DNA from: Gemmatimonadales bacterium
GTDB lineage: Bacteria; Gemmatimonadota; Gemmatimonadetes; Gemmatimonadales; GWC2-71-9
Assembly (NCBI GenBank): GCA_039917855.1
Contig: JBDSIR010000146.1
Span: 2,047-66,046 of the forward strand
DNA: 64,000 bases
Direction of reading: 5' to 3'
Part shown: piece after piece, positions 4,284 through 39,896 of the stretch
Layout: each line of letters starts with the position of its first letter
Numbering within the stretch: position 1 is the first letter of the stretch
Program-made: the position numbers and the translations under genes
Notes under the pieces: model-generated
Told to the model about the DNA's origin: nothing
Seen by the model: the letters and a program-made list of their open reading frames with translations, nothing else
Database searches by the model: none

Positions 4284-4514
4284 TCATTTCCGGAAGACTT
4301 CCGGCCACCGGCGGACACCGTACCACCGCTTTCCGTCCTTCGGCATCGACCAGACATTCGAGACTTCACGCAGTTCCGGGAGGACTTCCTTGCCCTTGCC
4401 GACCGCCACGCGCACCGCCTGCCGCCACGAGCCCTGGGCGCGCCGCTTGGCCCACTTGTCGGAGCCCGCGGTAGTGATGCCGGCAATAGGGGTATGTCGG
4501 ATGGAGCGGCTCAT
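4284..4514 (-). CDS. Hypothetical basic 76-aa protein, third cistron after the RelE-like toxin
   Basis: Its ATG at 4514 directly abuts the toxin stop (4515-4517). Mostly G/C-ending codons. I recognise no domain. Confidence 0.4.
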   Translation of the reverse strand: MSRSIRHTPIAGITTAGSDKWAKRRAQGSWRQAVRVAVGKGKEVLPELREVSNVWSMPKDGKRWYGVRRWPEVFRK

Positions 4515-4778
4515 TCAGCGATCCCAATAGGCATTCTTGCGGTCAGCGACCCGGACGACTACGACGAGCACCCGTTGGTCGTACACCTGATAGAGGATCC
4601 GAAAATCGCCTGAGCGGATCCGGTACTCGTTGCGGCTCCCCTTAAGCTTCTTCACCCCGTCAGGTCGGGGATCATCGGCCAACGCCTCGATCCGAGCACC
4701 GACCTGTCGTTGGATCTTCCGAGGTAGCTGCTCGAATTCCGATTCTGCATCTTCTGTGAACTCGATCCTGTAGGCCAC
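4515..4778 (-). CDS. RelE/ParE-family type II toxin
   Basis: 87 aa with GTG start: MAYRIEFTEDAESEFEQLPRKIQRQV..LKGSRNEYRIRSGDFRILYQV..VLVVVVRVADRKNAY, a typical RelE/StbE pattern. More A/T-ending codons than its neighbours. Confidence 0.85.
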   Translation of the reverse strand: MAYRIEFTEDAESEFEQLPRKIQRQVGARIEALADDPRPDGVKKLKGSRNEYRIRSGDFRILYQVYDQRVLVVVVRVADRKNAYWDR

Positions 4779-5532: not shown

Positions 5533-5617
5533 TGGTCGTGAACGTGGGAGGGTCGGCGATCGCCATCACGGATCTACTGGACATGGGCCAACAACCAACG
5601 ACCAGCGACCAATGACC
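5513..5617. repeat. Heptamer-array hairpin, GGTCGTT type
   Basis: Left arm ggtcgttggtcgttggtcattggtcgtg (5513-5540). Right arm ccaacaaccaacgaccagcgaccaatgacc (5588-5617). Confidence 0.9.
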
Positions 5618-6366
5618 TATTTCTTGAGGAAGGCGCTGATCGCGGTCCGGAAATCGGGGGTCGCTCGGCTCATCGCGTTGATGCGGGCGCCGAGCCTGAT
5701 GGCGTCATCGAAGGGGAGCCCGTCCTGGGCGTAGCAGAGCTGCTTCGTCAGGGCGTACGCGGTGAGTGAGACGCCGGTCAGCTGGTTCACGAGGTGCGAA
5801 GTGCGAGGTGCGAAGTCCGGGGTGCGGATGACCTCGGTCACCAACCCAAGGGCCTGGGCCTCAGCCGCTGAGAGGAGGCGGCCGGTGGCGGTGAGCTCAA
5901 GCGCTCGCTTCTCGCCGACCTGGCGCACCAGCATCGCCATCACCATCGCGGGGACGAAGCCGCGCTGGATCTCGGGGTAGCCGAACTGGGCCGTGTCGGC
6001 GGCCAGCACGAGGTCACAGGCGGTGGCGAGGCCGCATCCGCCCGCGAGTGCCCTCCCCTGCACCACTGCGACGACCGGCTTGGGGAGCGCGCGGAGCCCC
6101 TGGAACAGGGCGCCCAACCGCAGCGCGCTCTGCTCGTTGTCGGCGGGATCCTTGTCGGCCGAGGCGAGGAGCTCGTCGAGGTCGGCGCCGGCGCAGAAGT
6201 CCTTCCCCGCCCCCTTGATGACCAGCACCCGAACGGCGGGGTCGTGGTCGGCGCGGGCGACGCCCTCGTGCAGCGCTTCGATGAGCGCCGACGACAGCGC
6301 GTTCCGCTTGTCGGGGCGGTTCAGAGTGAGCGTGAGAATGCCAGCGTTGAGATCGGTTTGAAGCAT
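5617..6366 (-). CDS. Enoyl-CoA hydratase/isomerase (crotonase) family, methylglutaconyl-/isohexenylglutaconyl-CoA hydratase-like
   Basis: ORF trimmed to MLQTDLNAGILTLTLNRPDKRNALS. Has VIKGAGKDFCAGADL and GYPEIQRGFVP. Contains the repeat-encoded PDFAPRTSH segment. Confidence 0.9.
   Translation of the reverse strand: MLQTDLNAGILTLTLNRPDKRNALSSALIEALHEGVARADHDPAVRVLVIKGAGKDFCAGADLDELLASADKDPADNEQSALRLGALFQGLRALPKPVVAVVQGRALAGGCGLATACDLVLAADTAQFGYPEIQRGFVPAMVMAMLVRQVGEKRALELTATGRLLSAAEAQALGLVTEVIRTPDFAPRTSHLVNQLTGVSLTAYALTKQLCYAQDGLPFDDAIRLGARINAMSRATPDFRTAISAFLKK
5794..5822. repeat. Solo GTGCGAA-type array inside the enoyl-CoA hydratase CDS
   Basis: A 29-mer gtgcgaagtgcgaggtgcgaagtccgggg, identical to 1020-1048. 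It encodes PDFAPRTSH on the minus strand. Confidence 0.9.
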
Positions 6367-6385
6367 CGGGTTCGTCGTGGTTCCC

Positions 6386-6441
6386 GGGTGAAGGGTCGAG
6401 GGTCGAGGGTGCATCACCCTCCACCCTCCACCCTTAACCCT
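6386..6441. repeat. Heptamer-array hairpin, GAGGGTC type
   Basis: gggtgaagggtcgagggtcgagggtg-ca-tcaccctccaccctccacccttaaccctt. A tight hairpin containing the TAA stop of the upstream gene. Confidence 0.9.
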
Positions 6442-6841
6442 TCGCCTGCTTGGCCTGGGTCGGGAGCGATCTCAAGATCGCCGCCGGGACGGGGATCCGC
6501 ATCCGGAGGAGGGCCGTGGAATAGACCTTTCCCTGCGCATCGGTCTTGAGCGAGATGGTGCCCCCACCATCGAGCGCGCCGTGGAGGAGGAAGTTGAGCG
6601 CCCACAGGTTGGGGAGCTCGAAGCGTTCCACTCCGCTCACCATCCCCTTGAAATGCGCCTTCACGCGCGCCAGCGTGACTTCCTTCCGGATGAGCTCGTA
6701 CCACTCCGGCTGGAGCGCGATCAGCCCGACATTGGCGGTGTCGCCCTTGTCTCCGCTCCGGGCATGGGCAAGCCACCGAAGCTGCACCTGGCGGGCCTGT
6801 GGGCCAGTGGGCCGGTGGGCCTTCTTCCGAGCGCTAGGCAT
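6434..6841 (-). CDS. AtuA C-terminal-domain-like small protein (partner of DUF1446/AtuA)
   Basis: Has [32 protein letters not shown], as in the C-terminal region of long AtuA proteins. The ATG at 6841 overlaps the AtuA stop. The start is uncertain because the track ORF begins at 6862. Confidence 0.65.
6793..6822. repeat. Octamer array GGGCCNGT inside a CDS (AtuA small partner N-terminus)
   Basis: gggcctgtgggccagtgggccggtgggcc. It encodes AHRPTGPQA on the minus strand. Confidence 0.8.
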
Positions 6842-8207
6842 TGAGAACCTCGACGTGGACATGAGGTTCCACCACGGTCCGGTCGATCAATGCCGGCCAG
6901 TACGCCACGATCTCCTCTACCGCCGGGCGGCCACCGGCAAACCCGGTCACGCTCGGCGGGCCTGTGAGGACCAGGGGTGCGATCTCCCGGCTGAACCGCT
7001 CCACCGCCTTCTTGTCGTTGCTCCGCACCCCCACCCTCAGCTGCACCTCCGCTTCGCGGCCAGTGGGCCGGTCGGCCAGCGGGCCATGCGTCGCGTTCAC
7101 GCCGACAAATTCCGTCAGGATGGTCTCGAACTCGAGCCCGAGGTCCTTGAGCCGCTGGCGAAGGATCTTGTCCGCGGCTTTCGCCTTGTCGTACGCTTCG
7201 GGCCAGCTGTACACCAGCGTCCCGACCGCCTTCCAGCCATAGTGATAGGCGATCGAGACCTTGAGCTTGTCGGTGCGCGGCCCCCCGCGGATGCCGGAGA
7301 CGGCCACCCGGTCCTTCCCCGCCTGCTTGAGCCGGATCGAGGTGAAGTCGGCGACGCCGTCGGGAGTGATGTAGTTGTGGGGGTCGCCCATCTCGTACAC
7401 CAGCTGTTCGCTCACCGAGGCCACACTCACCACGCCGCCGGTGTTCGAGTGCTTGGTGACCACGAAGCTCCCGTCGGGTGCGACCTCGACGATCGGAAAG
7501 CCGGGGTCGGCCAGCCCTTTCACCTTCCGCCAGTCCTTCAGGAGGTTGCCCCCCGAGGCCTGGGCGCCGCACTCGATGATATGCCCGGCGATCGTCCCGG
7601 CGGCCATCTTGTCCCAGTCGTCCCTCCCCCAACCGTGCTCGTGCACGAGGGGACCCAGCGTGAGGCCGGTATCGGTGACTCGGCCTGTGATGACCAGATC
7701 GGCGCCGCGGCCCAAGGCCTCGACCACCGGCGCCATCCCGATATAGGCGTTGGCCGAGACCACCTGGTCACGGATGTCGCTCAGAGGACGGCCGGTATCC
7801 ATGTCGCGCATCTCGTGGCCGGCGGCCAGGAGTTCGTCGAGCCGCGGCAGGATGTCGTCCCCGGAGACGAGAGCGACCTTGACCTGCGCCGAGAGGCCGA
7901 GCTTCCGCGCCGCCCCGATGACCGCCTCGGCGCAGGCGCGTGGATTGACCCCGCCGGCGTTCGAGATGACCCGGAACCGCTGCGACGCGAGATCGGGGAG
8001 GATCCGTTCCATCAGCGGCACGAAGTCGCGCGCATAGCCGTGATCCGGGTCGCGCGACTTCTGCTTCTGCATGATGGACATGGTCACCTCGGCGAGGTAG
8101 TCCATCATCAGGTAATCGATCGGGCCGCCCCGGACCTGACGGACCGGCGCTTCGAGCCAGTCCCCCCAGAATCCCTGCCCGGCGGCGATGCGGACGGTCT
8201 TGGACAT
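6834..8207 (-). CDS. Acyclic terpene utilisation AtuA-family protein (DUF1446)
   Basis: 457 aa: [42 protein letters not shown], the pattern I recognise as AtuA/DUF1446. Its ATG overlaps the peptidase stop (ATGA). Confidence 0.85.
7057..7088. repeat. Octamer array (C/G)GGCCNGN inside the AtuA CDS
   Basis: cggccagtgggccggtcggccagcgggccatg. It encodes [10 protein letters not shown] on the minus strand. Confidence 0.75.
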
Positions 8208-11062
8208 CAGCGCATCAGCGGCGTCGGGGCCCGGGCGAGCGGGGCCTCGAGGGTCCAGGGCTCGGTGCCCCCGACCGCGGCGCTCCAGCGTACCAGCGCC
8301 ACGAAGCCGGTCGGGAGCGCCCAGGGTCCCGCGGCCGTGGCATAGCGCACCCCTTCGGGTGTTCCCGGCGCGAGTGTGATCGTCACGGCGCCGGCGGGTG
8401 CGAGCGCGACCCCCACGGTGTCATCGCCATAGAGACGGATCCGCGCGGTGACGGTCCAGCGCTGACCCGGGGTAGCGCTGGCCCAGCCCGGATAGAGCCG
8501 GAGGTTCGCGGTCGCGCCTCTGATTTGGCGGGAGATACCGGCGGAAAGGCGTCCGAAGGCGTAGTTGAGCGGGGCCTTCTCGATCTGGCGGCCCTCGGCG
8601 TCCTCGAGGGTCACGCCGAAGTCGGTGAAACGGGACCAGTCACCGCGGGGCATCTCGATATCGATCTCCACCCGCTTGACCCACTTCGGTAGGTCGATCG
8701 CGAGGCGGCCGGTATCCGCGCCGACGCCGCTCAGCGTCTCTTCCCGCGCCCCACCGATGATCGTGCCCGAGGTGGTGACTGTCACCGGAGCACCGGTCAG
8801 GTTCCGGAGGGCCAGGATGGCGGCGTCCCCACGGAGATCGGCGATCATCGTGAAGGGAGCCTGGGTCAGGTGGACGCCAGCGGTGCTGGAGGAGATCGGG
8901 GGCGCGACCGCGATCACTTCGTAGGTGCCCGTGCTCACGTCACGCGCGTCGACGCGGAACATCGGCGCCGCACTCCCGCTCGAGCCCTCTTCTTTGTGCC
9001 CACCCCGGTACGGTTGACCGCCGGGTTCGTGGAGATAGGCGCGGATCACATCCTTGCTCGCGCCGGAAGCCACCATCACCGCGAAGGGCCGTCCCGCCTC
9101 GGCGCCGAAGCTCCATCGCCGCTCGAGGCCGGGGCCGAGTGCCACGGGGATGACGTCGACGTCGGCTCCAGAGGGCGAGGGCACCACGATCGTGTTGACC
9201 AGTCGGGCCACCGGCCCCGCCATCGTGTCGGCGCCCCAGAGGGTGACCGTGCCGATGTAGGTCCCGGGGACCTTGAGCGCAGTGGCATCGTAGGAAACAA
9301 GCATCTCGCCGGTCCCGCGAGGAAAGCGGACTCGCGGTGCCACGTGGAGCCAGCGCGCATCGGTGCGGGTCGTGAGATCGAGCGGACTGGCTGCCCCACT
9401 GCCGGCCCATTCAATGCCGAAGCGCTGGAGCGTGTCGCCCGGCGCGAGTCCCGCGCCCCTGAACGCCGCCCCGGTGCGCTCGCCGGAACGCCCGATCGCG
9501 AACGCGGTGAGCGCCGACCAGTTGTAGTTCCCCGCGAGCCAGCTCCACGCGCGCCCGACATTCGGGAGTCCGGCGCCTTGGTCGATGATCGAGAGACCAT
9601 CGAGGGGTTGGGCGGTGGTGACGAGCGCCTGCCGCACCCGCGCCGCCACGACCGGCTTGCCGGTCTGTACCAGCGCCGAGGCCAGGAGGGCGGCAAGGCC
9701 GGCAGCGTGGGGCGAGGCCATCGAGGTACCCCCCTTCACTTCGTCGCCCTGGTTCCAGCGCGGCACTGTGGAGTAGGCGACGCCGGGGGTCACGATGTCG
9801 GGTCGGGCCAATTCGCCGCCGCGCGAGCTGAAGTAGGCAATGGGGTCGGGGCCGACGCCCGGGTCGCGCATCAGGAAGGCGCGCGGGAAGGTGGCGCCGA
9901 CCGAGATCACGCGGGAGGCCGAGCCGGGGAAGCCGACGGTGGAGTGGCCGGGGCCATCGTTGCCGGCGCTGATGGTGAAGATGATGTCGGGATGCGCCGC
10001 GAGGACGGAATCGAAGAGGTGGTCGATCCGCGCCCTTCCTTCCTCCTCGTTGCCCACCCCGAAGCTCATGTTGAGCACCAGGGGACGGCGGCGCTCCGCG
10101 GCCACCCGGAGGGCGTAGTCGAGGGCGGCCATCATCGACCCGGTGGTGGAGATCCCCCCCTGGGCGTCGTTCGCGATCTTGAGCCCGAGCAGCTCGGCGC
10201 CCGGGGCGACGCCATCGAAGCCGGCGACGCCGTACATCTCATTTCCCGCGGCGATGCCGGCGACGTGGGTGCCGTGGGCACTGTTGTCGAAGTAGAGGTC
10301 GAGCGCGGGTTCGCCCCCCTGCTCCGTGAAGTTGGCGGCGAAGCCGAGCGAGGGCGCCCTGCCGGCGGGGGCCCAGCCGAAGCTCTCGCGCGCCACGAGG
10401 TAATCATGGATCGGCCTCTCGTTGCTGAGCGAGCCATCCCCGTCGAGGTCGGCGAGAAGCACCCAGCCGTCGGTCGCACGGGTGACGAGGATCGGGAGGG
10501 TATCGCCGACCACGTTGTTCCAATTGACGTCGGAGGCAGGGACCTCCCCCAGCGGGATCTCACGGAGCACGCCGGCGTACCAGGGGCCCGTGGCGTTGAG
10601 ACCGAGGAGCCGACCGAACCCTGTCAGTGAATGGCCAGCGACGCTCACCGCGTCCCCTTGGGGGGTGATGCGGGTGAGCGCGATACGGCCTTCGCCTGAG
10701 AAATCCCGGAGGTCGACGAGTTTGGGGGCGCCGGTGCTGGTGGTCTTGAGTCCGTCGGTGTTCGGATCGATGCCGGAGTCGAGGATGGCGATCAGGACCC
10801 CGCGGCCATCCCACTCGGGGTGCGTCTGCAACCAGGCCGGCACTCCGGTCGGTGCCAGCGGCATCCAGTTGCGCTCGTACGCCGTCGTCGGCGGCTGCAG
10901 ATGGGTCGCGTCCGCGCGCGCGCGCGGCGTGGTGGCCGGGGGCAGCGCCGGCGCGACTGGTGTGGGCGACGTCTGCACGGAGGGGCCGCAGGCGGCGACC
11001 AGCAGAGCGAGAGCGAGGCCTGTCCTGAGGGACAGCGAAGGAAGTGGGGAGCGAGAAGACAT
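8207..11062 (-). CDS. Secreted/lipoprotein subtilisin-like S8 peptidase with long C-terminal extension
   Basis: ORF trimmed to [26 protein letters not shown]. Catalytic triad contexts are [30 protein letters not shown]. Confidence 0.9.
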
Positions 11063-11075
11063 TGGTTCCGTTGGC

Positions 11076-12695
11076 CTAGCGCAGGTCGAAGGGTCCGAGG
11101 TGCGACCCGGTGTTCCGTGAGACGACATCGAGCAGGAACGCGAGGGTATCGCGCGTCTCCTCGGCGGTGATGATGGCATCGACGTGACCGCGGGCAGCCG
11201 CGGACTTGGCGTCGAGCTGGTGCTCGTAATCGGCGCGCATCGATTCGATGGCGGCTTGCACGTCTGGAGAGAGGGCCGTCCCGGCAGTCCGTGCCCGTTC
11301 GAGGGTGGGGCCGTGGACGGCGCCCACCGCGCTCTCCCCCTCCATGACCGCCATCCGCCCAGTCGGCCAGCTCACGATGAAGTCGGGGTCGAATCCCTGC
11401 CCCGCCATGGCGTAGTACCCGGCCCCGGAGGCGTGATTGACCGTCAGCACGAGCTTCGGCACCGAGGCCGTCGCCATCGCCTCGACGAAGCGGGCACCGG
11501 CGCGGATGATCCCGGAATGCTCCGCCTCGGGACCGACCATGAATCCGCTCACGTCCTGCACGAAGAGGATCGGGAGACCCTCCCGGGCGGCGGTCTCGAT
11601 GAAATACGCCGACTTCTCCGCGCTCTCGGTGTAGAGGATCCCGCCGAAGCGCGGGGCCGTACCGGGACGCCCCTTGATGACGCCGCGCTGGTTGGCGAGG
11701 ATCGCGACCGGGCGTCCCCCGATGCGGGCGTGGCCGCAGAGCATCTCCCCGCCGACCGCGGGCTGGAACTCGTCCAGCCGACCCCCGTCGAGGATGCAGG
11801 CCAGGATGTCGCCCATGTCGTACGACATGCGATGATCCTTGGGCAGGATCTTCTCGAGGTCGGCGGCGGGTCGGGACGCCGGGGCCTCAGGCCTCAGGCC
11901 CCGGGCTTCGGGAGGCTTGGGGAGTCGCGCGAGGTACTCGCGGATCATCGTGAGGCAGGCGCGGTCGTCCTTGGCGGTGTAGTGCGCCACCGCGCTGATG
12001 CTGGTGTGGGTGCTGGCCCCACCGAGGAATTCCCCGTCGACGGTCTGGCCGGTGGCGCCCTTTACGAGGTTCGGGCCGCCGAGGCCCATGAAACTGGTCC
12101 CCTCGACCATGTAGATGACGTCGGAGAGGGCTGGGAGATACGCCCCGCCCGCCACGCAGCTCCCCATCACCGCGGCGATCTGCGGGACCTTGAGGTAGCG
12201 GCGCATCAGCGAGTTGTAATAAAAGATGCGGGCCGCGCCGTACTGCCCCGGGAAGACCCCTCCCTGATAGGGAAGATTCACGCCGGCCGAGTCGACCAGG
12301 TAGACGATCGGGATCCGCTCCCGCATCGCCACCTCCTGCGCGCGGAGGATCTTGGTGATGGTCTCCGGCCACCAGCTCCCCGCCTTCACCGTGGCGTCGT
12401 TGGACACCACGACGACCTCGCGCCCCTCCACCCGCCCGATGCCGGTGATGACGCCGGCCGACGGCGCCTGCCCGTCATAGCGGTCGTACGCCACCAGAAG
12501 GCCGAGCTCGAACCAGGGACTCTTGGGGTCGAGCAGGCCTTCGACCCGCTCGCGCGGGGTGAGCTGCCCCTTGGCATGTATCTTCTTGGCACGCTCCGGC
12601 CCTCCCCCCTGCCGCAGCTTGGCGGCGAGGGCGAGGTACTCCTTCGTCAGGCTGGAAAGCCGCTCGCTCAATCCTTGAGGTGGGTCGCCGCCCAC
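11076..12695 (-). CDS. Acyl-CoA carboxylase carboxyltransferase (beta) subunit, methylcrotonyl-/geranyl-CoA carboxylase-like
   Basis: 539 aa: [54 protein letters not shown]. An alternative TTG start at 12671 overlaps the upstream stop. Confidence 0.9.
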
Positions 12696-13117
12696 TCCTT
12701 GATATACGCGATCAGGTCCGTCGTCGGGGTCCCGGGGCCGAAGAGCTTGCCGATCCCCAGTTTCTCGAGGGCGTCGGCGTCGTCCTTGGGGATGATCCCC
12801 CCGCCGGTGACCAGCATGTCGGCGCGACCATCCTTGACCAGGAGCTCACGCACCCGGGGAAAGAGCGTCATGTGCGCGCCCGAGAGGATCGAAAGACCCA
12901 CCACATCGACGTCCTCCTGCACCGCGGCGGCGGCGATCATCTCCGGCGTCTGATGCAGGCCGGTATAGATGACCTCCATCCCGGCGTCACGGAGGGCGGC
13001 CGCCACCACCTTGGCGCCGCGATCGTGTCCATCGAGACCGGGCTTGGCGACGAGCACCCGCACGGGGCGGCCGGGGGCCGGGCGCACGGTCGGGGCGTTC
13101 TTCACGGCCATCATCAT
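12668..13117 (-). CDS. Acyl-CoA mutase small subunit, cobalamin-binding domain
   Basis: ORF 12668-13990 trimmed to MMMAVKN. Has [18 protein letters not shown] (the DxHxxG B12 motif) and [11 protein letters not shown]. The upstream 290 codons are a GC-shadow overlapping the HAD and baeRF genes. Confidence 0.9.
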
Positions 13118-13800
13118 ATCAAGGCTCCAGTGCCGAGCAGTCGGTCGACCACCGCCGCCACATCCGGGGCGGTGGGCACATCGCGCGAGGCGTGGAGCCC
13201 CGCCGGGTCGAGGAGCACCGCGGCCATCCCGGCGCGGCGCGCACCGACCACATCCACTTCGTACAGGTCTCCCACGTACAGCGATTCCGCAGGACCCACC
13301 TCCAGCGCTTCGAGCGCCGGCAGGAAGATACGCGGATCGGGCTTTTCGAACCCCGCCAGCTTCGAATCGACCACCACCGTGAAGTACTCCGCCAGCCCGA
13401 CCGCTTCCAGCGCCTCGGCCACGCGGCCGTCGCTGTTGGAGACCACCCCAAGGCCGATCCTCGCGTCTCGAAGGCGCCCGAGTGCCGGCGCGGTACCGGG
13501 ATCGACGCCAGTCCACAGGTGCCGGTCGGCATGCAGGGCCCAGAGGACCCGCTGGACCTCTGCCATCTGCGCCCCCGGCACCCCCACCTCCGCGAACAGC
13601 AGCTCGATATAGCGCAGTGCGCGCTCCTGGTCGGTCCCCTTTCCCTCTTCCATCGCGAGGGCTGCCTTGGGCGAGGCGGCGCGGAGCATCGGTGCGGTGA
13701 GCGGCAGTCCCAGCGCGCTCGCGACTGCCGGCGCGATGCGCTCGTGATCGAGCCCGACGAGGGTATTGCCCGCGTCGAACAGGACCGCGCGATACTTCAC
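13114..13800 (-). CDS. HAD-superfamily hydrolase
   Basis: GTG start: [15 protein letters not shown] (DxD-type motif I), [24 protein letters not shown]. Its start overlaps the upstream stop (GTGA). Confidence 0.8.
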
Positions 13801-14951
13801 TTGAATCGCAGCAGGGCGGCGAGCCCGTCGACCGCCTTGGCCGCGGCCGCATCGTAGAGCACGTTGATGTCAAGTCGCTGGCGGAGCGCCTCTTCGAGCG
13901 CCTCGTCGACCACGTCGGTGACCGGCTCCGGATCGCCTTCCCCCTTCCACGCGGCATTCTCGCCCGGCACCACCAGCCGGCCGGAGCCACGGAGCCGGAA
14001 CCCCGGACGGCTCGTCTCCCCGTGCACGAGGAGGGTGCGCACCTTGCCGTGCGCGAGCGCCGTGAGGGTATCGGCGACGCCGTTCACGGCCCAGCCGCGC
14101 CCGACCCCCTCCTTCATCTCGGCCACCACCGCCGCTTCGCGTTGATGTTCGTAGTTGGCGCGCACGTCGATCGCCGCCTCGCGCACGATCGCGGCCGTGG
14201 CCTCCTTGGGTCCCAGCGTCCCGACACCGAGGAGGCGCTCGAAGACGTACTGATGGAGAAAGGCCGCCACCGCTTCGGGGGTGCTGCCGGGGCCGAGGAG
14301 GATGACGCCCTGGAACGGCTCACGGCGGGCCAGGTCGAAGAGCCGAGCCGCCACGTTCTCGAGGTGGCGCTGCTGGGCGTTCCGGATCCGGTTGTGATAG
14401 GTGTGCTCCCCCATCCCGGCGCCCGCTTTGCGACCCAGGCGCGGCCGCTCCTCGTTGCCGAGGGTGACGAGCTCGGTCCCGAGCTCGGTGGCGTCGAAGG
14501 CGGTGACGCGGAAGAACCGGGCGTGGGTCCGGTCGACCACGCCGACGAGGAGACGACCGACTTCGTCCTCGATGCCGGCCAGCTCACGCACCAGCGGCGC
14601 GCGCGATACCGTCAGGCGCGAGCGGTGTACCGTCGGGAGCTCGAACACTTCCCAGAGACGCCGCGCCTTCGACGCGAAGAGCGCCAGCCCCTGGCCGTGC
14701 GGGAGCTGGCCCGGATGGGCGAGGTGTTCCTGGATCCGCTTCAGATCGGCGGTGATCGCGTCGCGCTCCGCACGGTCGAAGTCCATCTTCTCGACCGCCC
14801 GCTCCGCCGCCTTGATCAGGTTCTTCAGCTTGATGAGGAACTTCCCCCGCTCACGGTCACGGGGTTCGAGTTTGAGATAGAGGGACACGACCGGTGCGCC
14901 AGTACGCTCCTTGGCGAGGCGGTCGAGCTGCTTGTTGTTGGGAGTGGGCAT
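13797..14951 (-). CDS. eRF1/Pelota-like (baeRF / Vms1-like / host-attachment clan) protein, function unknown
   Basis: 384 aa. N-terminal [18 protein letters not shown], central [29 protein letters not shown]-terminal [12 protein letters not shown]. The layout resembles bacterial archaeo-eukaryotic release-factor-like proteins as I recall them. The CDS is solid; the family call is tentative. Confidence 0.55.
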
Positions 14952-14987
14952 TACTGCTCCCTTCGTTGAGTACGAGTGACGATCGTC

Positions 14988-15258
14988 GACCCGCGAAGCG
15001 GCGGACCCTCTCCGCGGTCTGTCATCCTGAGGGCGCTTCAGCGCCCGAAGGATCTCCGCCGTCCTTGCCGAGATATGGCATGGCGTCGTGCTTCATCCCA
15101 AACTCGCGCGGGTCGATCCACTGCTTCCAGTGAGGCATCGCAATACTTGTCCTGCGCAGGCCCCGTGAGGATCCCGGCAGAACTTGCCGGAGATCCTTCG
15201 GCCCCTGAAGGGGCCTCAGGATGACAGGGCGCGGGGTTCGTCCGCCGCTTCGCGGGTC
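14988..15258. mobile_element. MITE-like element, GTCATCCTGAGG family, copy 1
   Basis: Inverted ends of about 70 bp: gacccgcgaagcggcgga..ctgtcatcctgagggcgcttcagcgcccgaaggatctcc at 14988-15058 and its reverse complement at 15187-15258. No ORF of note inside. Confidence 0.75.
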
Positions 15259-15276
15259 ACGACGTACCACACACCC

Positions 15277-16959
15277 CTAGAAGAACACCGGCTCCCGATA
15301 CGCTCCCCACACCCCTTCCAGCGTGTGGCGGATCTCGTAGAGGGTGCAATAGGCACGGGCGCAGTCGAGCATCGCCGGGATGACGTTCTGGTCCTCGGTC
15401 GCCGCCAACTGGAGGGCGGCGAGCCGCTGTTCCACCAGCGCACCGTCACGCTCGGCGCGGAGCTTGGCCATTCGGATCCGCTGGGTCCGCTCGGCGGCGT
15501 CGGAGACCTTGAGGATGTCGACGTCGGGCTCGTTGTGTTCGAGAAAGCGATTGACCCCGACCACCGCCTTGTGGTCGGACTCGACCTCGGCCTGGAAGCG
15601 CGAAGCGCTCGACGCGATCTGGCGCTGGAACCATCCCGACTCGATCCCCGCCACCACCCCGCCCTGCGCCTCGATCTCGGCGAAGAGCCCTTCGGCCTCG
15701 CGCTCGAGCCGGTCGGTCAACGCCTCGATGAACCAGGACCCGCCGAGGGGATCCTGGACGTTGGGGACCCCGGTCTCGTAGGCGAGGATCTGCTGGGTCC
15801 GGAGCGCGATCCGCACCGAGTCCTCGGTCGGTAACGCCAAAGTCTCATCGAAGGCGTTGGTATGGAGCGACTGGGTGCCGCCCAGCACGGCGGCGAGCGC
15901 CTGATAGGCCACCCGCACCACGTTGTTGTATGGCTGCTGCGCCGTGAGCGAGACCCCGGCGGTCTGGCTATGGAAGCGCATCTTCCAGCTGCGGTCGTCG
16001 GTGGCGCCGTATTTGTCGCGGAGACGCCGGGCCCAGATGCGCCGGGCGGCGCGGAGCTTGGCGATCTCCTCGAAGAAATCATTGTGGATGTCCCAGAAGA
16101 ATGAGAGCCGCGGGCCGAAGGCGTCGACCTTGAGCCCCCGCGCCATTCCGCGCTCCACATAGGTGAAGCCGTTGGCGAGCGTGAAGGCGAGTTCCTGCGC
16201 CGCCGTGGCCCCCGCCTCGCGGATGTGGTAGCCGCTGATGGAGATGGTATTCCATTTAGGCGCGTGGGTGCTGCCCCATTCGAACATGTCGACGATGAGC
16301 TTGAGCGCCGGCTCGACCGGATAGACCCATGCGTGCTGGGCCATGTACTCCTTGAGGATGTCGTTCTGGACCGTGCCCTGCAGCTTGGCCGACGGCACCC
16401 CCTGTTTCTCGGCGGCGGCGATGAAGAAGCACCAGAGCATCGCCGCGGGTCCGTTGATCGTCATCGACACGGAGACCTGGTCGAGCGGGATCCCGTCGAA
16501 GAGCGTCTCCATGTCGGCCAGCGAGCTGATCGCCACGCCGCACTTCCCGACCTCGCCCTCGGAGCGGACGTGATCGGAGTCGTAGCCCATCAGGGTCGGA
16601 AAATCGAACGCCACGGAAAGTCCGGTCTGGCCGCGCGCCAGCAGGAACTTGTACCGGGCGTTGGTGTCCTCGGCGGTACCGAAGCCGGCGAACTGGCGCA
16701 TCGTCCAGAGCTTGCCCCGGTACCCCGACGGGTGGATGCCCCGGGTGTAGGGGAACTGCCCCGGGAGTTCCGCCGCGGGCATCGTGTCGAGCGGGGTATA
16801 CACCGGCTCAAGCTCGAGGCCGGAGATGGTGTTGAAGTCGGTATCATCGCGGAGCGGCTGCTTGGCATAGAGCGCCCGCCACTTGGCGATCTCGGCGCGG
16901 AGCGTGGCCAGTTCCCGCTCCTGGGCGGCCAGGCGTTCGTCGACACGGGTCGTGGTCAT
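15277..16959 (-). CDS. Acyl-CoA mutase large (catalytic) subunit, methylmalonyl-/isobutyryl-CoA mutase family
   Basis: 560 aa: [64 protein letters not shown] lies upstream of the ATG. Confidence 0.92.
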
Positions 16960-16975
16960 CGGTCCCCTCCGGTGG

Positions 16976-18019
16976 TCAGGCGCGGGCGCCCTGGCGCAGG
17001 TGGTCGAGCACTTCCGCAGCCACCTCGTACGGGCTCACCCTCCCCGCCGCGATGTCGTCCAGCCGCTCGGCGATCCGCCGCTCGGTGTCGGTCTCTTCCT
17101 TGAGCCACGCCAAGGCGTGGCGGGTCACCACCTCGCGGGTCCGTTCGCGCAGCCGCTCCCGGCGACGGTGGGCGAGGTCGCCCGTCCGTTCGAGCCAGCG
17201 GTGATGGGCGTCGAGCGCGACCATCAGCTCGTCGATCCCTTCGCCCTTGACCGCGCTGGTGCCGAGCACCGGTGGAAGCCAGACCGCCGCGTCGGGATCG
17301 CCGGCATGCAGCACCGCCTTCCGTTCGGTCGACTTGAGCGCGCCGTGGTGCGCCGGGACATTGCGATAGGCGTGGCCGGTCCGGATGCCGAGGGTGATCT
17401 CGATCTCCTGCCGGAGCCGGTCGGCGCCGGGCCGGTCGGCCTTGTTCACCGTGTACAGATCGGCCGCTTCCATCACGCCGCTTTTGAGCGCCTGGATCCC
17501 ATCCCCCGATTCGGGCACCAGCACAAGGAGGGTGGTGTCGGCGGTGCGGGTCACGTCGAGCTCCGACTGTCCTACCCCTACGGTCTCGACCAGGATCCGG
17601 TCGAACCCCGCCGCGTCGAGCACGTCGCAGACCTCCCGCGTCGTGGTGGCGAGCCCGCCGAGGGAGCCGCGGGTGGCCATCGAGCGGATGTAGACGTCCT
17701 TGTCGAGGGCGATCGCCTCCATCCGGATCCGGTCGCCGAGGAGGGCGCCACCGGTAAAGGGGCTGGTCGGGTCGACCGCGACCACGGCGACGCGGAGCCC
17801 CTCGGCCCGGAGGGCGAGGACCAGACGCTCCGTGAGGGTCGATTTCCCTGCCCCCGGAGGCCCCGTGATCCCGATCCGCCGGGCGTGCCCCTGGCGGGGG
17901 TGGATGGAGGCCAGCAGCTGCTCGAAGCCCGAGCGGCCATTCTCTACAATAGAGATGGCGCGGGCGAGCGCGGCGGGGCGCCCCTGGGCGAGCTCGGCGA
18001 GGATGTGGTCAAGATGCAT
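16976..18019 (-). CDS. meaB: Methylmalonyl-CoA mutase-associated GTPase MeaB/ArgK
   Basis: ORF trimmed to MHLDHILAELAQG because the upstream codons lie in a MITE-like element. Has GITGPPGAGKST, VAVDPTSPFTGGALLGDR, NKAD. Confidence 0.9.
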   Translation of the reverse strand: MHLDHILAELAQGRPAALARAISIVENGRSGFEQLLASIHPRQGHARRIGITGPPGAGKSTLTERLVLALRAEGLRVAVVAVDPTSPFTGGALLGDRIRMEAIALDKDVYIRSMATRGSLGGLATTTREVCDVLDAAGFDRILVETVGVGQSELDVTRTADTTLLVLVPESGDGIQALKSGVMEAADLYTVNKADRPGADRLRQEIEITLGIRTGHAYRNVPAHHGALKSTERKAVLHAGDPDAAVWLPPVLGTSAVKGEGIDELMVALDAHHRWLERTGDLAHRRRERLRERTREVVTRHALAWLKEETDTERRIAERLDDIAAGRVSPYEVAAEVLDHLRQGARA

Positions 18020-18074
18020 CGGCTGGAAAATCACCGTCTTAGGCGACTGGGGCAAGTTCGCTGGCTGTGCCATC

Positions 18075-18300
18075 GGCCCGCGAAGCGGCAGCGACACTAC
18101 GCCTGCTGTCATCCTGAGGGCGCTTCAGCGCCAGAAGGATCTCCGGGTCGCTTGTCGTGGTACTTCGAGGCCGTGATGCTGATCGGCAGCGATTCCAAGC
18201 ATGGGCTCCGCGATCACCGCTCCGAACCAGCACGACGATCCTGGCATCCCAATCATGCCGGCCGGAGATCCTTCGGGGCCTGAAGGCCCCTCAGGATGAC
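18075..18300. mobile_element. MITE-like element, GTCATCCTGAGG family, copy 2
   Basis: ggcccgcgaagcggcagcgac..gtcatcctgagggcgcttcagcgccagaaggatctcc on the left and ggagatccttcggggcctgaaggcccctcaggatgac on the right (ends at 18300). Confidence 0.7.
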
Positions 18301-18342
18301 AGCGCGCGTGATGGGTACGGCCGCCCGGGACGGGCGGCCCTA

Positions 18343-19980
18343 CTACCTCCGCAGGCTCCTCGCCTTGAACCGCAACGGATTCTGGAACAGATGGCTCGGC
18401 AGCAGGAACACCACCACGAACATCCCGAAGCTGATCATCAGCCCGAGCACCAGCACCTCGAGCCGGCGGCTGGCGAGATACACGATCGAGGTGATCATCC
18501 CGACCGTGAAGGCGAAGACCGCCAGCAGCAGCCGCCGCACCTGGGTGCCGATGAAGCGCTGCAGCTCGCCGACGTCCCGCGGATGCCAGCGGACCTTGAG
18601 TTCCTCGCGTTCCACCCGGCGGATCAGGTCGCGCAGGGAGCGGACCCCCTGGGTCACTTCCTTGGCCCAGTCGCCCAGTCCGGCCTGCGGCTCCTGCCCC
18701 AGGAGTGCGGCCATCAACTTCGGCCGCCATCGGTCGAGGACGGGCTTGAGCTCCTGCGCCACGTTCACGTTCGGGTCGTACCGAAGCGCCAACCCTTCCA
18801 CCAGCGCCGAGGCCCGCCCGAAGTAGACGAGGTCGCTCGGCAGCATCAGCGGCCAGTCGTAGAACGAGTGGACCAGTTCGTCCACCAGCTTGCCGATCTG
18901 CCGGACGCTCGCCCCCCGCTGGCCCGCCAGTTCGACCACTCGCCGGGCAGCGTCCTGCACCGCCCCGCGATCAGCGTCGGGATCCAGGATGCCGAGTTCA
19001 TAGAAACCGTTGATGACGCCGTCGGGGTCGCCCTGGGCGGCGGCCAGGACCAGGCGCGCCAATTTGGTCCGGAGCTCCCGTTCGACCGGGATGACCATTC
19101 CGAAGTCGAGGAGCACCACCCGCCCCCGGGGATCGACGAGGAGGTTGCCCGGGTGGGGGTCGGCGTGGAACAGCCCGTCGACCAGCATCATCTGCAGATA
19201 AAGCTCACCGACGGTCCGGACCAGGTGACGGACGTCGATCTCGCCGCTGGCGATCCGGTCGTGCAGCCGATCGATGCGGGTCCCCTCGATGTACTCGAGC
19301 ACCAGGACCCGGCGGGTCACCAGGGCCGTCACGACCTCGGGGACCACCACCTGCGGGAAGGGGGCCAGGTTCTGCCGAATGAGCTGCGCCTGACGCGCTT
19401 CCTCGCGGAAATCGAGTTCCCCACCGATCCGCTTGGCGAACTCGCTGACGATGGCGCCAAGGGCCCGGGTGTGATGGTTCGGGAAGAGGACCTGGACGAC
19501 GAGGAGGAACCGGAAGGCGATGTCCAGGTCGTCGTGCACCAGCTCGACGACACCGGGGCGGAGGACCTTCACGGCCACCTCGCGCCCGTGCCAGGTCGCG
19601 CGGTGCACCTGCCCGAGCGACGCGGCCGCCAGAGGCACCGTATCCCACTGCTCGAACAGCTCTGCCACCGGCGCGCCGAGCTCGGTCCGCACCACCGACT
19701 CCGCGACACCCGGTGCCAGCGGCGGCACCTGGTCGGAGAGCGTCGCGAGGGTCGAGAGATAGGGCTCGGGGAGGATGTCGGCGCGGACGCCGAGGACCTG
19801 GGCCAGTTTGATGAACGTGGGACCCAGCTCCGCGAGGGTGCGGGTCAGGCGCTGGGCGCGGCGGCCGTGGAAGTCCTCGCTGCGGTGGGGGGTCCCGCCG
19901 AACACGATGAACCGGCGCCGGTCGCGGAGGAAGCCGACGAGGAACGGCAAAAGCGCGAAGAGGACGCGGAGGGCCCGCAT
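18343..19980 (-). CDS. ABC1/UbiB-family atypical kinase
   Basis: ORF trimmed to MRALRVLF, whose ATG overlaps the mgtE stop. Has GPTFIKLAQVLGVRADILP, AAASLGQVHRA, VAVKVLRPG, HADPHPGNLLV, and C-terminal TM helices. Confidence 0.9.
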   Translation of the reverse strand: MRALRVLFALLPFLVGFLRDRRRFIVFGGTPHRSEDFHGRRAQRLTRTLAELGPTFIKLAQVLGVRADILPEPYLSTLATLSDQVPPLAPGVAESVVRTELGAPVAELFEQWDTVPLAAASLGQVHRATWHGREVAVKVLRPGVVELVHDDLDIAFRFLLVVQVLFPNHHTRALGAIVSEFAKRIGGELDFREEARQAQLIRQNLAPFPQVVVPEVVTALVTRRVLVLEYIEGTRIDRLHDRIASGEIDVRHLVRTVGELYLQMMLVDGLFHADPHPGNLLVDPRGRVVLLDFGMVIPVERELRTKLARLVLAAAQGDPDGVINGFYELGILDPDADRGAVQDAARRVVELAGQRGASVRQIGKLVDELVHSFYDWPLMLPSDLVYFGRASALVEGLALRYDPNVNVAQELKPVLDRWRPKLMAALLGQEPQAGLGDWAKEVTQGVRSLRDLIRRVEREELKVRWHPRDVGELQRFIGTQVRRLLLAVFAFTVGMITSIVYLASRRLEVLVLGLMISFGMFVVVFLLPSHLFQNPLRFKARSLRR

Positions 19981-21320
19981 CAGAGCAGGAACTTCGTCGC
20001 GAGACCGAGGAGCAGGAAGAACCCGATCATGTCGGTAAAGGTCGTCACGAAGATCGACGACGCGACGGCGGGGTCGACCTTGAACTTCTCCAGCAGGATC
20101 GGAACGAACGCGCCTGCGAACCCCGCCACCATCAGATTGCAGGTCATCGCGAGGAAGACGATCACGCCGAAGCGGATCCCCAGACCGAACACCATCGCGA
20201 CGAGCATCACCACCAGGCCGTTGCCGACGCCGTTGATGAGCCCGACCACGACCTCCTTGGCCACGACGCGCATCCCCTGCCCCTTCGGCACCAGGCCGAG
20301 GGCCAGGCGTCGCACCGTCACGGCGAGCGCCTGGGTGCCGGCGTTGCCCCCCATCCCGGCGATCACCGGCATCCAGAGCGCCAGCACCGTGAGCCGGGCG
20401 ATGGTGTTCTGGAAGATCCCGACGACGGACGCGGCCATGAACGCCGTGATCAGGTTCACATAGAGCCACGGGAGGCGGCTCCGCACCGCCGCGGTCCACC
20501 GGGCCGCGATGTCCTCGTCGGCCGAGACGCCGCCGAACTTGAGCAGGTCTTCCGTCGCTTCGGCCTCGACCACGTCGATGACGTCGTCGAAGGTGACTCG
20601 GCCAAGGAGCCGCCCGTTGCCGTCGACCACCGGCACCTCGAGCAGGTTGTAGCGCGACATCAGGTCGGCCACATGCTCCTGGCCCTCCTCCGGATGCACC
20701 CGGATATCGGCATCCTCCATGAACTCGCGCACCGGCCGCTCCGGCGGACTCGTCACCAGCCCCTTGAGCGGCACGATGCCCTGCAAATGACTGTCCCGAT
20801 CGGTCACGTAGACCTGGATGAAGCCTTCGGCCTCTTCCGATTGCCGACGGATCGCCTCGATCGCTTCCGCCGCCGTGACGTTGTCGGGCACGGTCACGAG
20901 GCGGGTGGTCATCAGTCCGCCGGCCGACTCCTCGTCGTAGCGCAGCAGCTTCTCGACGTCGGCACGCTCGGGCGCCTCGACCTCCGCGAGGATCCGCTCG
21001 GCGGTGTGCTCGTCCATCTGGCCGAGGAGGTCGGCCGCGTCGTCGTCGGCGAGTTCCCCGACGATCTCGGCGGCCCGCCCCGGGTGCATCGCCGCGAGGG
21101 TGTCCTCGGCGTGATCCTCCTCGGGCATCTCGGCGAGCGCTTCACCCGAGAGCTCGGGCGGGAGGGCGGAGACCGCGACGAGCCGTTCGGTATCGTCCAG
21201 GGAGGAAAGGACTTCCCCCAGGTCGGCCGCTTCGAGCTCGTGCGCCGCCGACACGAAGGCGTCGATATGACCGGTGCGGACGAGCTCCGCGATGACCTGC
21301 AGCCGCGAGGGCTTTCTCAC
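19980..21320 (-). CDS. mgtE: Magnesium transporter MgtE
   Basis: 446 aa with an N-terminal MgtE_N region, CBS pair and C-terminal TM domain ending DPAVASSIFVTTFTDMIGFF. Confidence 0.92.
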   Translation of the reverse strand: MRKPSRLQVIAELVRTGHIDAFVSAAHELEAADLGEVLSSLDDTERLVAVSALPPELSGEALAEMPEEDHAEDTLAAMHPGRAAEIVGELADDDAADLLGQMDEHTAERILAEVEAPERADVEKLLRYDEESAGGLMTTRLVTVPDNVTAAEAIEAIRRQSEEAEGFIQVYVTDRDSHLQGIVPLKGLVTSPPERPVREFMEDADIRVHPEEGQEHVADLMSRYNLLEVPVVDGNGRLLGRVTFDDVIDVVEAEATEDLLKFGGVSADEDIAARWTAAVRSRLPWLYVNLITAFMAASVVGIFQNTIARLTVLALWMPVIAGMGGNAGTQALAVTVRRLALGLVPKGQGMRVVAKEVVVGLINGVGNGLVVMLVAMVFGLGIRFGVIVFLAMTCNLMVAGFAGAFVPILLEKFKVDPAVASSIFVTTFTDMIGFFLLLGLATKFLL

Positions 21321-22504
21321 GTGGTCCCCCGGTCGAGGGTGAGGATGGGCACGGGCCCGGGGCGCACCAGCACCCGTTCGACGCGGGCGGGAGACGCCTG
21401 GATGACATCGAATTCGAGTCCGCGGACGGCGAGGCGCTCTCCGGCCTGCGGGATCCGCCCGGCCAGCTCGGTGAGGAGCCCCGCCACGGTCGCGGCACTC
21501 GTGTCCGGCAGGCGGACGCCGAAGCGCGTCGCGAGCGCGTCGAGCGGGGTCGAGCCGTCGGTCTCGAACACCTCGGTCGGCGTCGCGGCGGGCGCCGACA
21601 CTCCCGCGCCGTCGTCCTCATCGAAGATCTCACCGACGAGTGCGGTGAGGAGGTCTTCGAGCGTCACGATGCCCGCGGTGCCACCGTACTCGTCAAGGAC
21701 GACGGCGAGATGGCGCCGCTCCCGCTGCATCGCGAGGAGGAGATCGCCGCAGCTCCGGGTCTCGGGCGTGTGGGTGACGGGATGCCGTGGCAGCTCGGTG
21801 TCGCCCTGGGTGAAGAGGTCGAAGGCAAGGAAGACGCCGATGATCTCGTCGAGCGAACCCCGGTACACCGGCACCCGACTGAACCCGCTCTGGGCAAAGA
21901 CCAGAAGCAGGTCGTCCCGGCTCGCGTCCTCGGGCACCGCCACCACCTCGGTGCGAGGGGTCATCACCTCGCGCACCGGTCGTTCGGCAAAGGTCATCAC
22001 CCCGCCGGCCAGTGCAAGTTCCCGATCGACGGCCACGCCGGCGGCCATCGCCTCGCGCACGAGCGCGGCGGCGTCGTGGCCGTGACGGCCGGCAGGAAGC
22101 ACGGGACCGAGGATCCGGGTCAGCGGCGCGATCACGGGGAGCGTCAGCTCCGCGGTCCTGCCCCCCGCCGCTCGCGCCACCCAGCGGGGCGCGAGATAGC
22201 CGACGAGCAGCAGCACCGGCACGCCACCGAACACGAGCACCGCCGCGAGCGCCGCGCCGGCGAAGCCGGTCACCACCGCGGGGAACGCGGAGCCCAGCAG
22301 CACGACCCCGAGGGCGGTCAACGCGCGGGCCGTGCCGAGGTAGACCTCGGCTTCCGCCAGCCAGGGCGCGGGGCGTTCTCCGCCCCGGAGCCGGCGGTTG
22401 GCCGCGCGCGCGAGCTCACGCCGCCCTTCGGCGACGAGCGCCGCGCCGGCGGTGGCGCCACCGATGGTGAGGATCAGCCCGAGTACAAGCAGGAGCGCGC
22501 TCAC
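21317..22504 (-). CDS. CNNM/CorC-type hemolysin-family protein (DUF21-CBS-CorC_HlyC)
   Basis: 395 aa with N-terminal TM region, VREVMTPRTEVV, a CBS pair, and LDEYGGTAGIVTLEDLL. Confidence 0.85.
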   Translation of the reverse strand: MSALLLVLGLILTIGGATAGAALVAEGRRELARAANRRLRGGERPAPWLAEAEVYLGTARALTALGVVLLGSAFPAVVTGFAGAALAAVLVFGGVPVLLLVGYLAPRWVARAAGGRTAELTLPVIAPLTRILGPVLPAGRHGHDAAALVREAMAAGVAVDRELALAGGVMTFAERPVREVMTPRTEVVAVPEDASRDDLLLVFAQSGFSRVPVYRGSLDEIIGVFLAFDLFTQGDTELPRHPVTHTPETRSCGDLLLAMQRERRHLAVVLDEYGGTAGIVTLEDLLTALVGEIFDEDDGAGVSAPAATPTEVFETDGSTPLDALATRFGVRLPDTSAATVAGLLTELAGRIPQAGERLAVRGLEFDVIQASPARVERVLVRPGPVPILTLDRGTT

Positions 22505-39843: not shown

Positions 39844-39859
39844 CGCCCGGGCGGAAAGC

Positions 39860-39896
39860 GGAGATCCTTCGAGGCCTGAAGGCCTCTCAGGACGAG
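39860..39896. repeat. Solo end of the GTCATCCTGAGG family abutting the tRNA 3' end
   Basis: ggagatccttcgaggcctgaaggcctctcaggacgag, immediately adjacent to the tRNA discriminator base. No partner end nearby. Confidence 0.7.

Follow-up and report, generated by a model that had tools for sequence, protein, structure and literature searches.

A Balon-like aeRF1-fold gene between the B12-dependent acyl-CoA mutase subunit genes of Gemmatimonadales

Why should a protein with the fold of a translation release factor be encoded between the two subunits of a B12-dependent acyl-CoA mutase? This question is raised by a stretch of 64,000 nucleotides from a Gemmatimonadales bacterium (contig JBDSIR010000146.1, G+C content ~70%), the whole of which is referred to here as the window, and in which a 384-residue protein with an aeRF1-like fold is encoded within a mutase gene cluster. 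The kind of protein is already known (Balon, 2024; baeRF-1, 2019) and the 384-residue protein is a divergent new member of it; its embedding between B12 mutase subunit genes throughout an order appears to be unreported, as we found no earlier report of such an arrangement. On balance, we think it somewhat probable that the protein is a non-catalytic, Balon-type hibernation factor of the ribosomal A site, which is co-expressed with a branched-chain acyl-CoA catabolic operon.

Gene calls in the window were taken from a listing of open reading frames (ORFs) and from direct reading of the minus strand. A preliminary description of the locus had given the minus-strand order as meaB, mutase large subunit, an element resembling a miniature inverted-repeat transposable element (MITE), the 384-residue gene, a HAD hydrolase and the mutase small subunit, and the Pfam and NCBIfam assignments agree with this order throughout. 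The features of this region are as follows.

16976-18019, minus strand: MeaB, the G-protein chaperone of the mutase (PF03308, 306 bits; TIGR00750, 330 bits)
15277-16959, minus strand: large (substrate-binding) subunit of the acyl-CoA mutase (PF01642, MM_CoA_mutase, 741 bits)
14983-15262, unstranded: palindromic repeat resembling MITE or repetitive extragenic palindromic (REP) elements, recognised by its inverted arms
13797-14951, minus strand: 384-residue aeRF1-fold protein, baeRF-1/Balon-like (PF18854, baeRF_family10, 40.4 bits)
13114-13800, minus strand: HAD-IA hydrolase, REG-2/HDHD3-like (Pfam Hydrolase, 72.9 bits)
12668-13117, minus strand: B12-binding small subunit of the acyl-CoA mutase (PF02310, 95 bits; TIGR00640, 172 bits)
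11076-12695, minus strand: acyl-CoA carboxyltransferase, similar to the beta subunit of methylcrotonyl-CoA or geranyl-CoA carboxylase (MCCase/GCCase) (PF01039, 435 bits)

Matches in the PDB, together with those in Pfam and NCBIfam, identify the genes that flank the 384-residue gene and the HAD gene as the two subunits of a split B12 acyl-CoA mutase accompanied by MeaB, and place a HAD hydrolase directly after the 384-residue gene, both as originally described. The overlaps that had been noted between the last three of these coding sequences are likewise present when the minus strand is read directly. The reverse complement of 13797-13800 is GTGA, in which the GTG start of the HAD gene lies over the TGA stop of the 384-residue gene, and that of 13114-13117 is ATGA, in which the ATG of the small subunit lies over the TGA stop of the HAD gene. 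The 384-residue gene is itself preceded by a good Shine-Dalgarno sequence, GAAGGGAG, located 5 nt before its ATG. The longest ORF for MeaB extends to 18112; the length of 347 residues adopted here agrees with that of the orthologue in the closest relative (L001). The true start of the carboxyltransferase is possibly a TTG at 12671, which overlaps the stop codon of the small subunit.

Conservation of the gene order across the Gemmatimonadales

With each GTDB species represented by one genome, a scan identified 317 relatives, and locus counts were obtained from the best 80 of these by tblastn with the window proteins, the denominator of each count being the number of loci that extend far enough to show the gene concerned. 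These 80 are all assigned to the Gemmatimonadales or Gemmatimonadota, with the exception of two metagenome-assembled genomes (MAGs) that are labelled otherwise. Both of the latter, L019 (labelled Acidimicrobiia) and L056 (labelled Bacillota), contain the full Gemmatimonadales-type array with identities as in true Gemmatimonadales, and their contigs are probably mis-binned.

A gene encoding a large subunit that resembles isobutyryl-CoA mutase (ICM) is located directly upstream of the aeRF1-fold gene in 76/76 species loci, and the B12 small-subunit gene is found downstream of it in 71/72, the single exception (L065) having unrelated genes on the opposite strand. MeaB is present in all 63 loci that could show it, the carboxyltransferase in 61/64 and an S8 peptidase in 43/50. 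The HAD gene, present in 53 of 72 loci and absent in 19, is the dispensable member of the trio formed by the HAD, aeRF1-fold and small-subunit genes, and the linkage holds without it. Across the species loci, the large-subunit gene and the aeRF1-fold gene are separated by a median gap of no more than 76 bp. In 37 of 57 HAD-containing loci, the next gene begins with a start codon that overlaps the stop codon of the aeRF1-fold gene and, where HAD is lacking, the small subunit starts within 39 bp in 17 of 19 cases. The aeRF1-fold protein has a median identity of 50%, compared with 78% and 82% for the mutase subunits. Unlike the aeRF1-fold gene, the S8 peptidase, the presence of HAD and the genes upstream of meaB vary between loci; in L002, the array begins at meaB, after a divergently oriented gene.

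A separate metagenome scan, which used an alignment of eight sequences as the query, detected 42 further mutase-linked loci with protein identities down to 38%, and the mutase-linked arrangement is found in well over a hundred loci in total. In two of the 42 metagenome loci, L096 and L097, the aeRF1-fold gene is followed by the B12 small-subunit gene, with the carboxyltransferase also present in L096. Upstream are a MeaB/mutase pair (L096) and a mutase on the opposite strand (L097), which at only 37-43% identity represent a paralogous mutase; the aeRF1-fold gene can thus stay linked to the small subunit when no ICM-like large subunit accompanies it. The preliminary description had left room for a neighbourhood peculiar to a single genome. 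Instead, linkage to the mutase genes is kept across the order, and since the arrangement recurs at both flanks in the species loci and again in the metagenome loci, the placement of the aeRF1-fold gene between mutase genes is far beyond chance.

The window itself has a wider gap than most, with 325 bp between the large-subunit gene and the 384-residue gene, because a palindromic repeat (14983-15262) has inserted there. The repeat has inverted arms of ~76 bp with 86% identity, each of which contains an internal GC hairpin, and with a further copy at 18073-18325 it flanks the meaB/large-subunit pair on both sides. In the closest relative, L001 (88% identical), the arms are found at the same two intergenic sites (4489-4712 and 7860-7946), and they are not found in more distant species. 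A fragment of the repeat at 39858-39895 abuts a tRNA gene (39897-39970).

Fold, family and conserved sites of the 384-residue protein

An AlphaFold2 model of the 384-residue protein, built from 79 homologues (mean predicted local distance difference test score, pLDDT, 84.2), is divided into three domains, and its loop at residues 166-180 is disordered. When the PDB was searched with this model using Foldseek, the first matches were to the ribosome-bound Balon Msmeg1130 (8v9j_z and 8v9l_z; E 7e-23, template modelling (TM) score 0.67-0.72), followed by aRF1 (TM 0.47), the P. urativorans Balon (TM 0.59-0.67) and Rv2629, with Pelota much lower; 8rd8_B and 8v9k_z are further Balon structures among the matches. 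The modelled protein thus has a three-domain aeRF1-like fold that resembles ribosome-bound Balon. The preliminary assignment to the aeRF1/Pelota fold and to a baeRF Pfam model is upheld, as the Foldseek search places the protein in the aeRF1/Balon fold and not in an unrelated one, and the baeRF_family10 match, which covers the middle domain (residues 119-261), exceeds the gathering score of 27.1 bits. The Pfam model for baeRF family 2 is also passed, marginally (28.3 versus 26.9 bits). The accompanying remark that the family is poorly characterised is outdated: Balon, Msmeg1130 and Rv2629 have been established since 2024 as ribosome hibernation factors, which occupy the A site together with EF-Tu (PMC10901736).

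At the sequence level, each of the three NCBIfam Balon models gives a weak alignment that spans the full length of the protein (E 8e-16 to 7e-14), with 58 bits for MSMEG_1130, 54 bits for AOC03_06830 (the P. urativorans Balon) and 52 bits for Rv2629. A sequence search of the PDB with Msmeg1130 retrieves neither Rv2629 nor the P. urativorans Balon at E<=1, and low identity is therefore normal within the Balon family, the validated members of which are as divergent from one another as they are from the 384-residue protein. Identification as a class-I release factor (aRF1/eRF1) was rejected, since the aRF1 model TIGR03676 gives only a partial alignment (E 1e-4) with 21.3 bits against a cutoff of 234.7, and both GGQ and NIKS are absent. 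A role in a defence system was also considered and dropped because the PADLOC models matched neither the aeRF1-fold protein nor the HAD protein. The 384-residue protein is 100% identical to a protein from a Gemmatimonadota MAG, and the public records that we inspected label the gene only as 'hypothetical protein' or 'eRF1'.

Three segments of the protein are referred to below.

14853-14867, minus strand: residues 29-33 (EPRDR), the loop after the first strand of the N-domain
14364-14417, minus strand: residues 179-196, the GGQ-equivalent loop and the Arg-rich start of a long helix
13935-14003, minus strand: residues 317-339, a β-hairpin insertion in the C-terminal domain

Motifs were counted over the 79 members of the mutase-linked clade, and a wider alignment comprised 92 representatives together with the window protein (93 sequences). 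Both direct reading and alignment bear out the earlier observation that the central segment, residues 179-196, lacks GGQ. NIKS occurs in 0/79 clade members and GGQ in 1/79, where it is incidental; the window protein has neither. The window sequence AGMGEHTY aligns with GGWSQARY of a more aRF1-like subgroup in the alignment of 92 representatives, so that E182 stands where the GGxSQ motif has its putative catalytic Gln (PMC6514570). This column is Glu in 75 of the 79 clade members, and contains 67 Glu and 10 Gln among the 93 wider sequences. The Gly-Gly that precedes it is degenerate in the clade, its first Gly being variable, and N187, R188, R190, R195 and H196 are invariant or nearly so. Burroughs and Aravind described baeRF family 10 as retaining a well-conserved Gln in the catalytic loop (PMC6514570), the position that is occupied by Glu here. 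On the aRF1 model, a GGWSQ-type relative reaches 76 bits and the window protein 21 bits; the GGWSQ-type relative also touches the model for the acVLRF1 hydrolase.

The EPRDR loop is near-invariant (E 77/79, P 78/79 and R, D and R each 79/79), is aligned by HMMER with 'ADPTQ' of Msmeg1130, and is a candidate for contact with the decoding centre. Balon lacks GGQ and NIKS and has a conserved β-hairpin that binds EF-Tu (PMC10901736). With respect to the hairpin, the 384-residue protein agrees with Balon in its presence only: the insertion at residues 317-339 is modelled as two short strands, which would form a putative EF-Tu contact, and Rv2629 carries an insertion of similar length at the aligned position. 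G317, R319, G324 and G339 are invariant. Residues 320 and 335 covary perfectly, with Cys at both positions in 59 sequences and at neither in 20, where the pair is Ala/Leu or, as in the window protein, Leu/Trp. The pattern suggests that the foot of the hairpin carries a disulfide or what is left of a metal site, and that a hydrophobic pair has taken its place in the subclade to which the window protein belongs.

Relatives outside the clade and competing explanations

A profile search of 1.84 billion representatives yielded 3,460 relatives, and in a crude neighbour-joining tree all of the mutase-linked sequences fall in one clade. Members of the sister clade (for example P0124, P0126, P0133 and P0136) have 40-45% identity to the window protein and at most 49% to the main Gemmatimonadales clade, and carry an identical set of motifs (CYxRLEPxDR, PGWGE.xYHNRI, GFRC...C.G.G, EEALRQ and LLRFR). 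These nearest relatives lie in hibernation and stress contexts: their genes are located beside chimeric HPF(S30AE)-CSD genes (L089, L093, L095, L107 and L110), Usp genes (L094 and L105), DUF4342 with FtsH (L086 and L099) or a two-component system (L088). No mutase genes were found near any sister-clade locus that was inspected, or at 16 more distant loci. Contexts of this HPF, Usp and stress type are those reported for Balon and baeRF-1 (PMC10901736; PMC6514570; bioRxiv 2025.11.04.686544), the reported neighbours of Balon being the stress genes RaiA, chaperones, Usp and efflux (PMC10901736). The typical Balon context is thus seen in the sister clade; in the window and the 80 species loci the mutase operon is found instead, and no second baeRF, HPF-CSD, DUF4342 or Usp homologue was detected in the 64-kb window or the mutase loci.

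Two further genes recur near these factors. Beside the sister-clade baeRF in L086 (8502-8840), L093 (2422-2754) and L099 lies a gene for a small DUF4342 protein, which is predicted to contain a hydrophobic stretch. It is followed by the FtsH gene in L086 and L099, and the L093 cluster also includes HPF-CSD and a gene of the inositol-monophosphatase family; Balon-like factors may have a hitherto unrecognised partner in DUF4342. The gene for MgtE, a Mg2+ channel, overlaps the stop codon of the baeRF gene in the HPF-linked L093 (4018-5040); in the window (19980-21320) and in many mutase-linked loci it is encoded on the same strand, ~5 kb upstream. This recurrence may be left over from an earlier baeRF-MgtE neighbourhood or may reflect a link between Mg2+ and the ribosome.

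If the 384-residue protein is a Balon-type hibernation factor, it would be an aeRF1-shaped occupant of the A site in ribosomes that are idle or stalling. The EPRDR loop of the N-domain would point to the decoding centre, the GxGE loop and Arg-rich helix to the peptidyl-transferase centre and the C-domain hairpin to EF-Tu, and it would block translation without peptide release. We infer that it binds the ribosome and EF-Tu, has no hydrolase activity and is co-transcribed with its neighbours, and the physiological logic of the coupling is likewise an inference. In the Gemmatimonadales, the gene has become fixed in a compact, co-directional operon comprising meaB, the ICM-type large subunit, the aeRF1-fold gene, an optional HAD gene, the B12 small subunit and the carboxyltransferase, usually continued by the S8 peptidase, AtuA and enoyl-CoA hydratase. 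Since the gene is fixed inside this catabolic operon, the factor would be made whenever branched-chain acyl-CoA (starvation-type) catabolism is switched on, and the parking of ribosomes would accompany the metabolic switch. A stronger version, in which a lineage-specific Balon paralogue is hard-wired into the B12-dependent operon by co-transcription and start/stop overlap so that the switch to starvation catabolism itself triggers hibernation, seems to us quite doubtful; such a hard-wired brake could possibly respond to acyl-CoA or B12 status via its HAD and MeaB neighbours, rather than belong to a general stress regulon.

Several observations weigh against a Balon-type function. Scores on the curated models NF052287, NF052288 and NF052289 (53.6, 58.0 and 51.8 bits) fall well short of the respective cutoffs (330, 480 and 320); these are narrow equivalog models, and the HPF-adjacent relatives fail the cutoffs too. 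The clade profile scores 26.6 bits against Msmeg1130 and 26.3 bits against aRF1, so that sequence favours neither. No HPF/RaiA, Usp or chaperone gene is present within the operon or the 64-kb window, and hence the usual stress context of Balon is missing at this locus. The HP motif and bL27 trap of Balon were not located in the 384-residue protein in a mapping for which PMC10901736 provides no residue numbers and the Balon sequences are not cross-alignable by PDB sequence search; the EPRDR loop and the disordered loop 166-180 are possible counterparts, as candidates only. All of the clade members come from uncultured MAGs. Finally, the loop GxGE-H-x-Y-H-N-R-I-R is far better conserved than the loops of non-catalytic baeRF families, which are poorly conserved (PMC6514570), and this strong conservation leaves room for a chemical role.

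The last point is one that would be expected of an active ribosome-rescue peptidyl-tRNA hydrolase, the activity proposed by Burroughs and Aravind for baeRF family 10, and the best Pfam match of the protein is indeed to this family, which is said to keep the catalytic Gln. However, that Gln is replaced by Glu in nearly all of the clade and the Gly-Gly before it has decayed, the true GGWSQ-type relatives are considerably more aRF1-like, the modelled structure is closest to Balon and the sister-clade genes are found beside HPF genes; we regard hydrolase activity as improbable. The position of the gene between two mutase subunit genes and close to meaB in so many loci could instead reflect exaptation to a non-ribosomal role in the mutase system, for example bridging MeaB and the two separate subunits as an adaptor or acting with the HAD protein to load the cofactor, particularly as the C-terminal domains of the aeRF1 family are GTPase-binding modules (PMC10901736). 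Against this, the invariant motifs (EPRDR, GWGE...NRIR...RH, the GFRC...C hairpin, EEALRQ and LLRF) are the same in the mutase-free sister clade linked to HPF and Usp, which argues for an unchanged molecular target and disfavours exaptation. MeaB, moreover, is a GTPase of the G3E/SIMIBI type and not a translational GTPase, and to our knowledge the split ICM and HCM mutases of other phyla work without any such protein, both of which count against a role of this kind. We consider it very improbable.

A frozen accident deserves more weight, and while we judge it unlikely it is far from negligible. An ordinary Balon-type factor might have landed between the mutase genes in an ancestor of the Gemmatimonadales, with no link to acyl-CoA metabolism, and have stayed only because breaking a compact operon is costly. 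The array does hold other functionally unrelated genes, such as the S8 peptidase and the optional HAD, the aeRF1-fold protein evolves faster than its neighbours, the palindromic repeat separates the gene from the large subunit in the window genome and L001, and the ICM-like large subunit is not upstream in L096 and L097. Yet retention of the gene is essentially absolute while HAD, S8 and the genes upstream of meaB vary, the overlaps and very short gaps have been kept at a protein identity of ~50%, and the gene remains linked to the small subunit even at loci from which the large subunit has moved away.

The host operon and comparison with known systems

The array is flanked on the minus strand by further genes, and continues beyond the carboxyltransferase. 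The gene assignments below rest on the ORF listing with Pfam/NCBIfam, and the second copy of the repeat was located by blastn of the element against the window.

21317-22504, minus strand: CorC-like protein
19980-21320, minus strand: MgtE
18343-20499, minus strand: ABC1 kinase
18073-18325, unstranded: second copy of the repeat element, upstream of meaB
8207-11179, minus strand: S8 peptidase
6834-8207, minus strand: AtuA
6434-6862, minus strand: AtuA-ferredoxin
5617-6417, minus strand: enoyl-CoA hydratase

The best PDB match of the mutase large subunit is HcmA (4r3u, 546 bits), with methylmalonyl-CoA mutase (MCM) at 525 bits. Its motifs are RQFAGF, SVAFD and YMAQHAW, compared with RQYAGF and FMVRNTY in MCM and with RQIAGF, STDFD and YMAQKEY in HcmA. 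Phe and Gln are thus found at the substrate-defining positions of Tyr89 and Arg207 of MCM, which is the published ICM-type signature; on this signature the host mutase is ICM-type, and its identification as MCM was rejected. The large subunit also lacks the Ile/Asp of HcmA, even though HcmA and MCM are the structures that it matches best in the PDB. Candidate substrates in this Atu/Liu-like cluster are isobutyryl-, isovaleryl- or pivalyl-CoA. With its mutase, methylcrotonyl/geranyl-CoA-type carboxyltransferase, AtuA and enoyl-CoA hydratase, the array looks like a pathway of branched-chain acyl-CoA catabolism.

The HAD protein scores 101.6 bits on TIGR02252, below the cutoff, and its best PDB match is human HDHD3 (3k1z). 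Its motif I (near 13760-13780) is DAGNT, in which Gly replaces Asp+2, the general acid/base, and so departs from the classical DxDxT; DAGNT is found in 54 of 62 HAD orthologues and DVGNT or DAGGT in the remainder. Judged from this motif, the protein may not be a classical phosphatase. The S8 subtilase is a large protein with an apparent lipoprotein signal (…LLVAACG…). Its gene separates those for the carboxyltransferase and AtuA and is, after the aeRF1-fold gene, the second non-metabolic one to be fixed within the catabolic array. An Rfam scan detected neither a riboswitch nor any other RNA in the operon, its sole match being the tRNA at 39897-39970, and promoter and terminator scans gave nothing beyond the shuffled background.

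A whole order that is environmentally abundant and largely uncultured therefore keeps a Balon-like gene between its B12 mutase subunit genes, and this placement hints that ribosome shut-down and starvation metabolism are switched on jointly. Should the coupling prove functional, it would provide a concrete link between a catabolic switch and ribosome shut-down and would widen the range of regulatory contexts for hibernation factors. The analysis also supplies an annotation for hundreds of database entries, and a defined clade for structure-function work on the E-for-Q exchange at the catalytic position and on the covarying Cys/Cys versus Leu/Trp pair.

We know of no described icm or hcm cluster with a translation-factor-fold gene between the subunit genes. 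Our literature search likewise retrieved no such cluster and no mutase-linked baeRF or Balon, and the part of the supplements to the Balon paper that was available contains no Gemmatimonadota or mutase entries. In other respects the host operon resembles the split IcmA/IcmB and HcmA/HcmB systems, having separate subunits together with MeaB, and its closest solved relative is HcmA (4r3u). The 384-residue protein shares its superfamily and domain order with aRF1/eRF1 and Pelota/Dom34 (Foldseek E 3e-20 for aRF1, 4af1, and ~1e-10 for Pelota), but its sequence matches to them are weak, it lacks GGQ, NIKS and the Zn-ribbon/mini-domain, and TM scores do not exceed ~0.47. With the GGxSQ-type proteins of baeRF family 10, which are VLRF-1-like putative peptidyl-tRNA hydrolases (PMC6514570), it has in common the same Pfam match and a loop that can be aligned residue by residue; those proteins keep the Gln and reach 76 bits on aRF1, whereas here Gln has become Glu and the first Gly is variable. 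The sister clade has identical motifs but is found beside HPF-CSD, Usp and DUF4342/FtsH and without mutase genes.

The comparison with Balon (P. urativorans AOC03_06830, Msmeg1130 and Rv2629; PDB 8rd8, 8v9j, 8v9k and 8v9l) shows differences of degree and of setting. The 384-residue protein has only 15-20% identity to these factors and scores far under the curated cutoffs, its gene is in a B12-mutase/branched-chain acyl-CoA operon and not beside RaiA, chaperones or Usp, and its ribosome binding is putative. Nevertheless, the three-domain aeRF1 fold is common to both (TM 0.58-0.72), both lack GGQ and NIKS, both have a hairpin insertion in the C-domain, the protein aligns full-length to the curated models, and its GxG[DE] loop resembles the GYGD of Rv2629.

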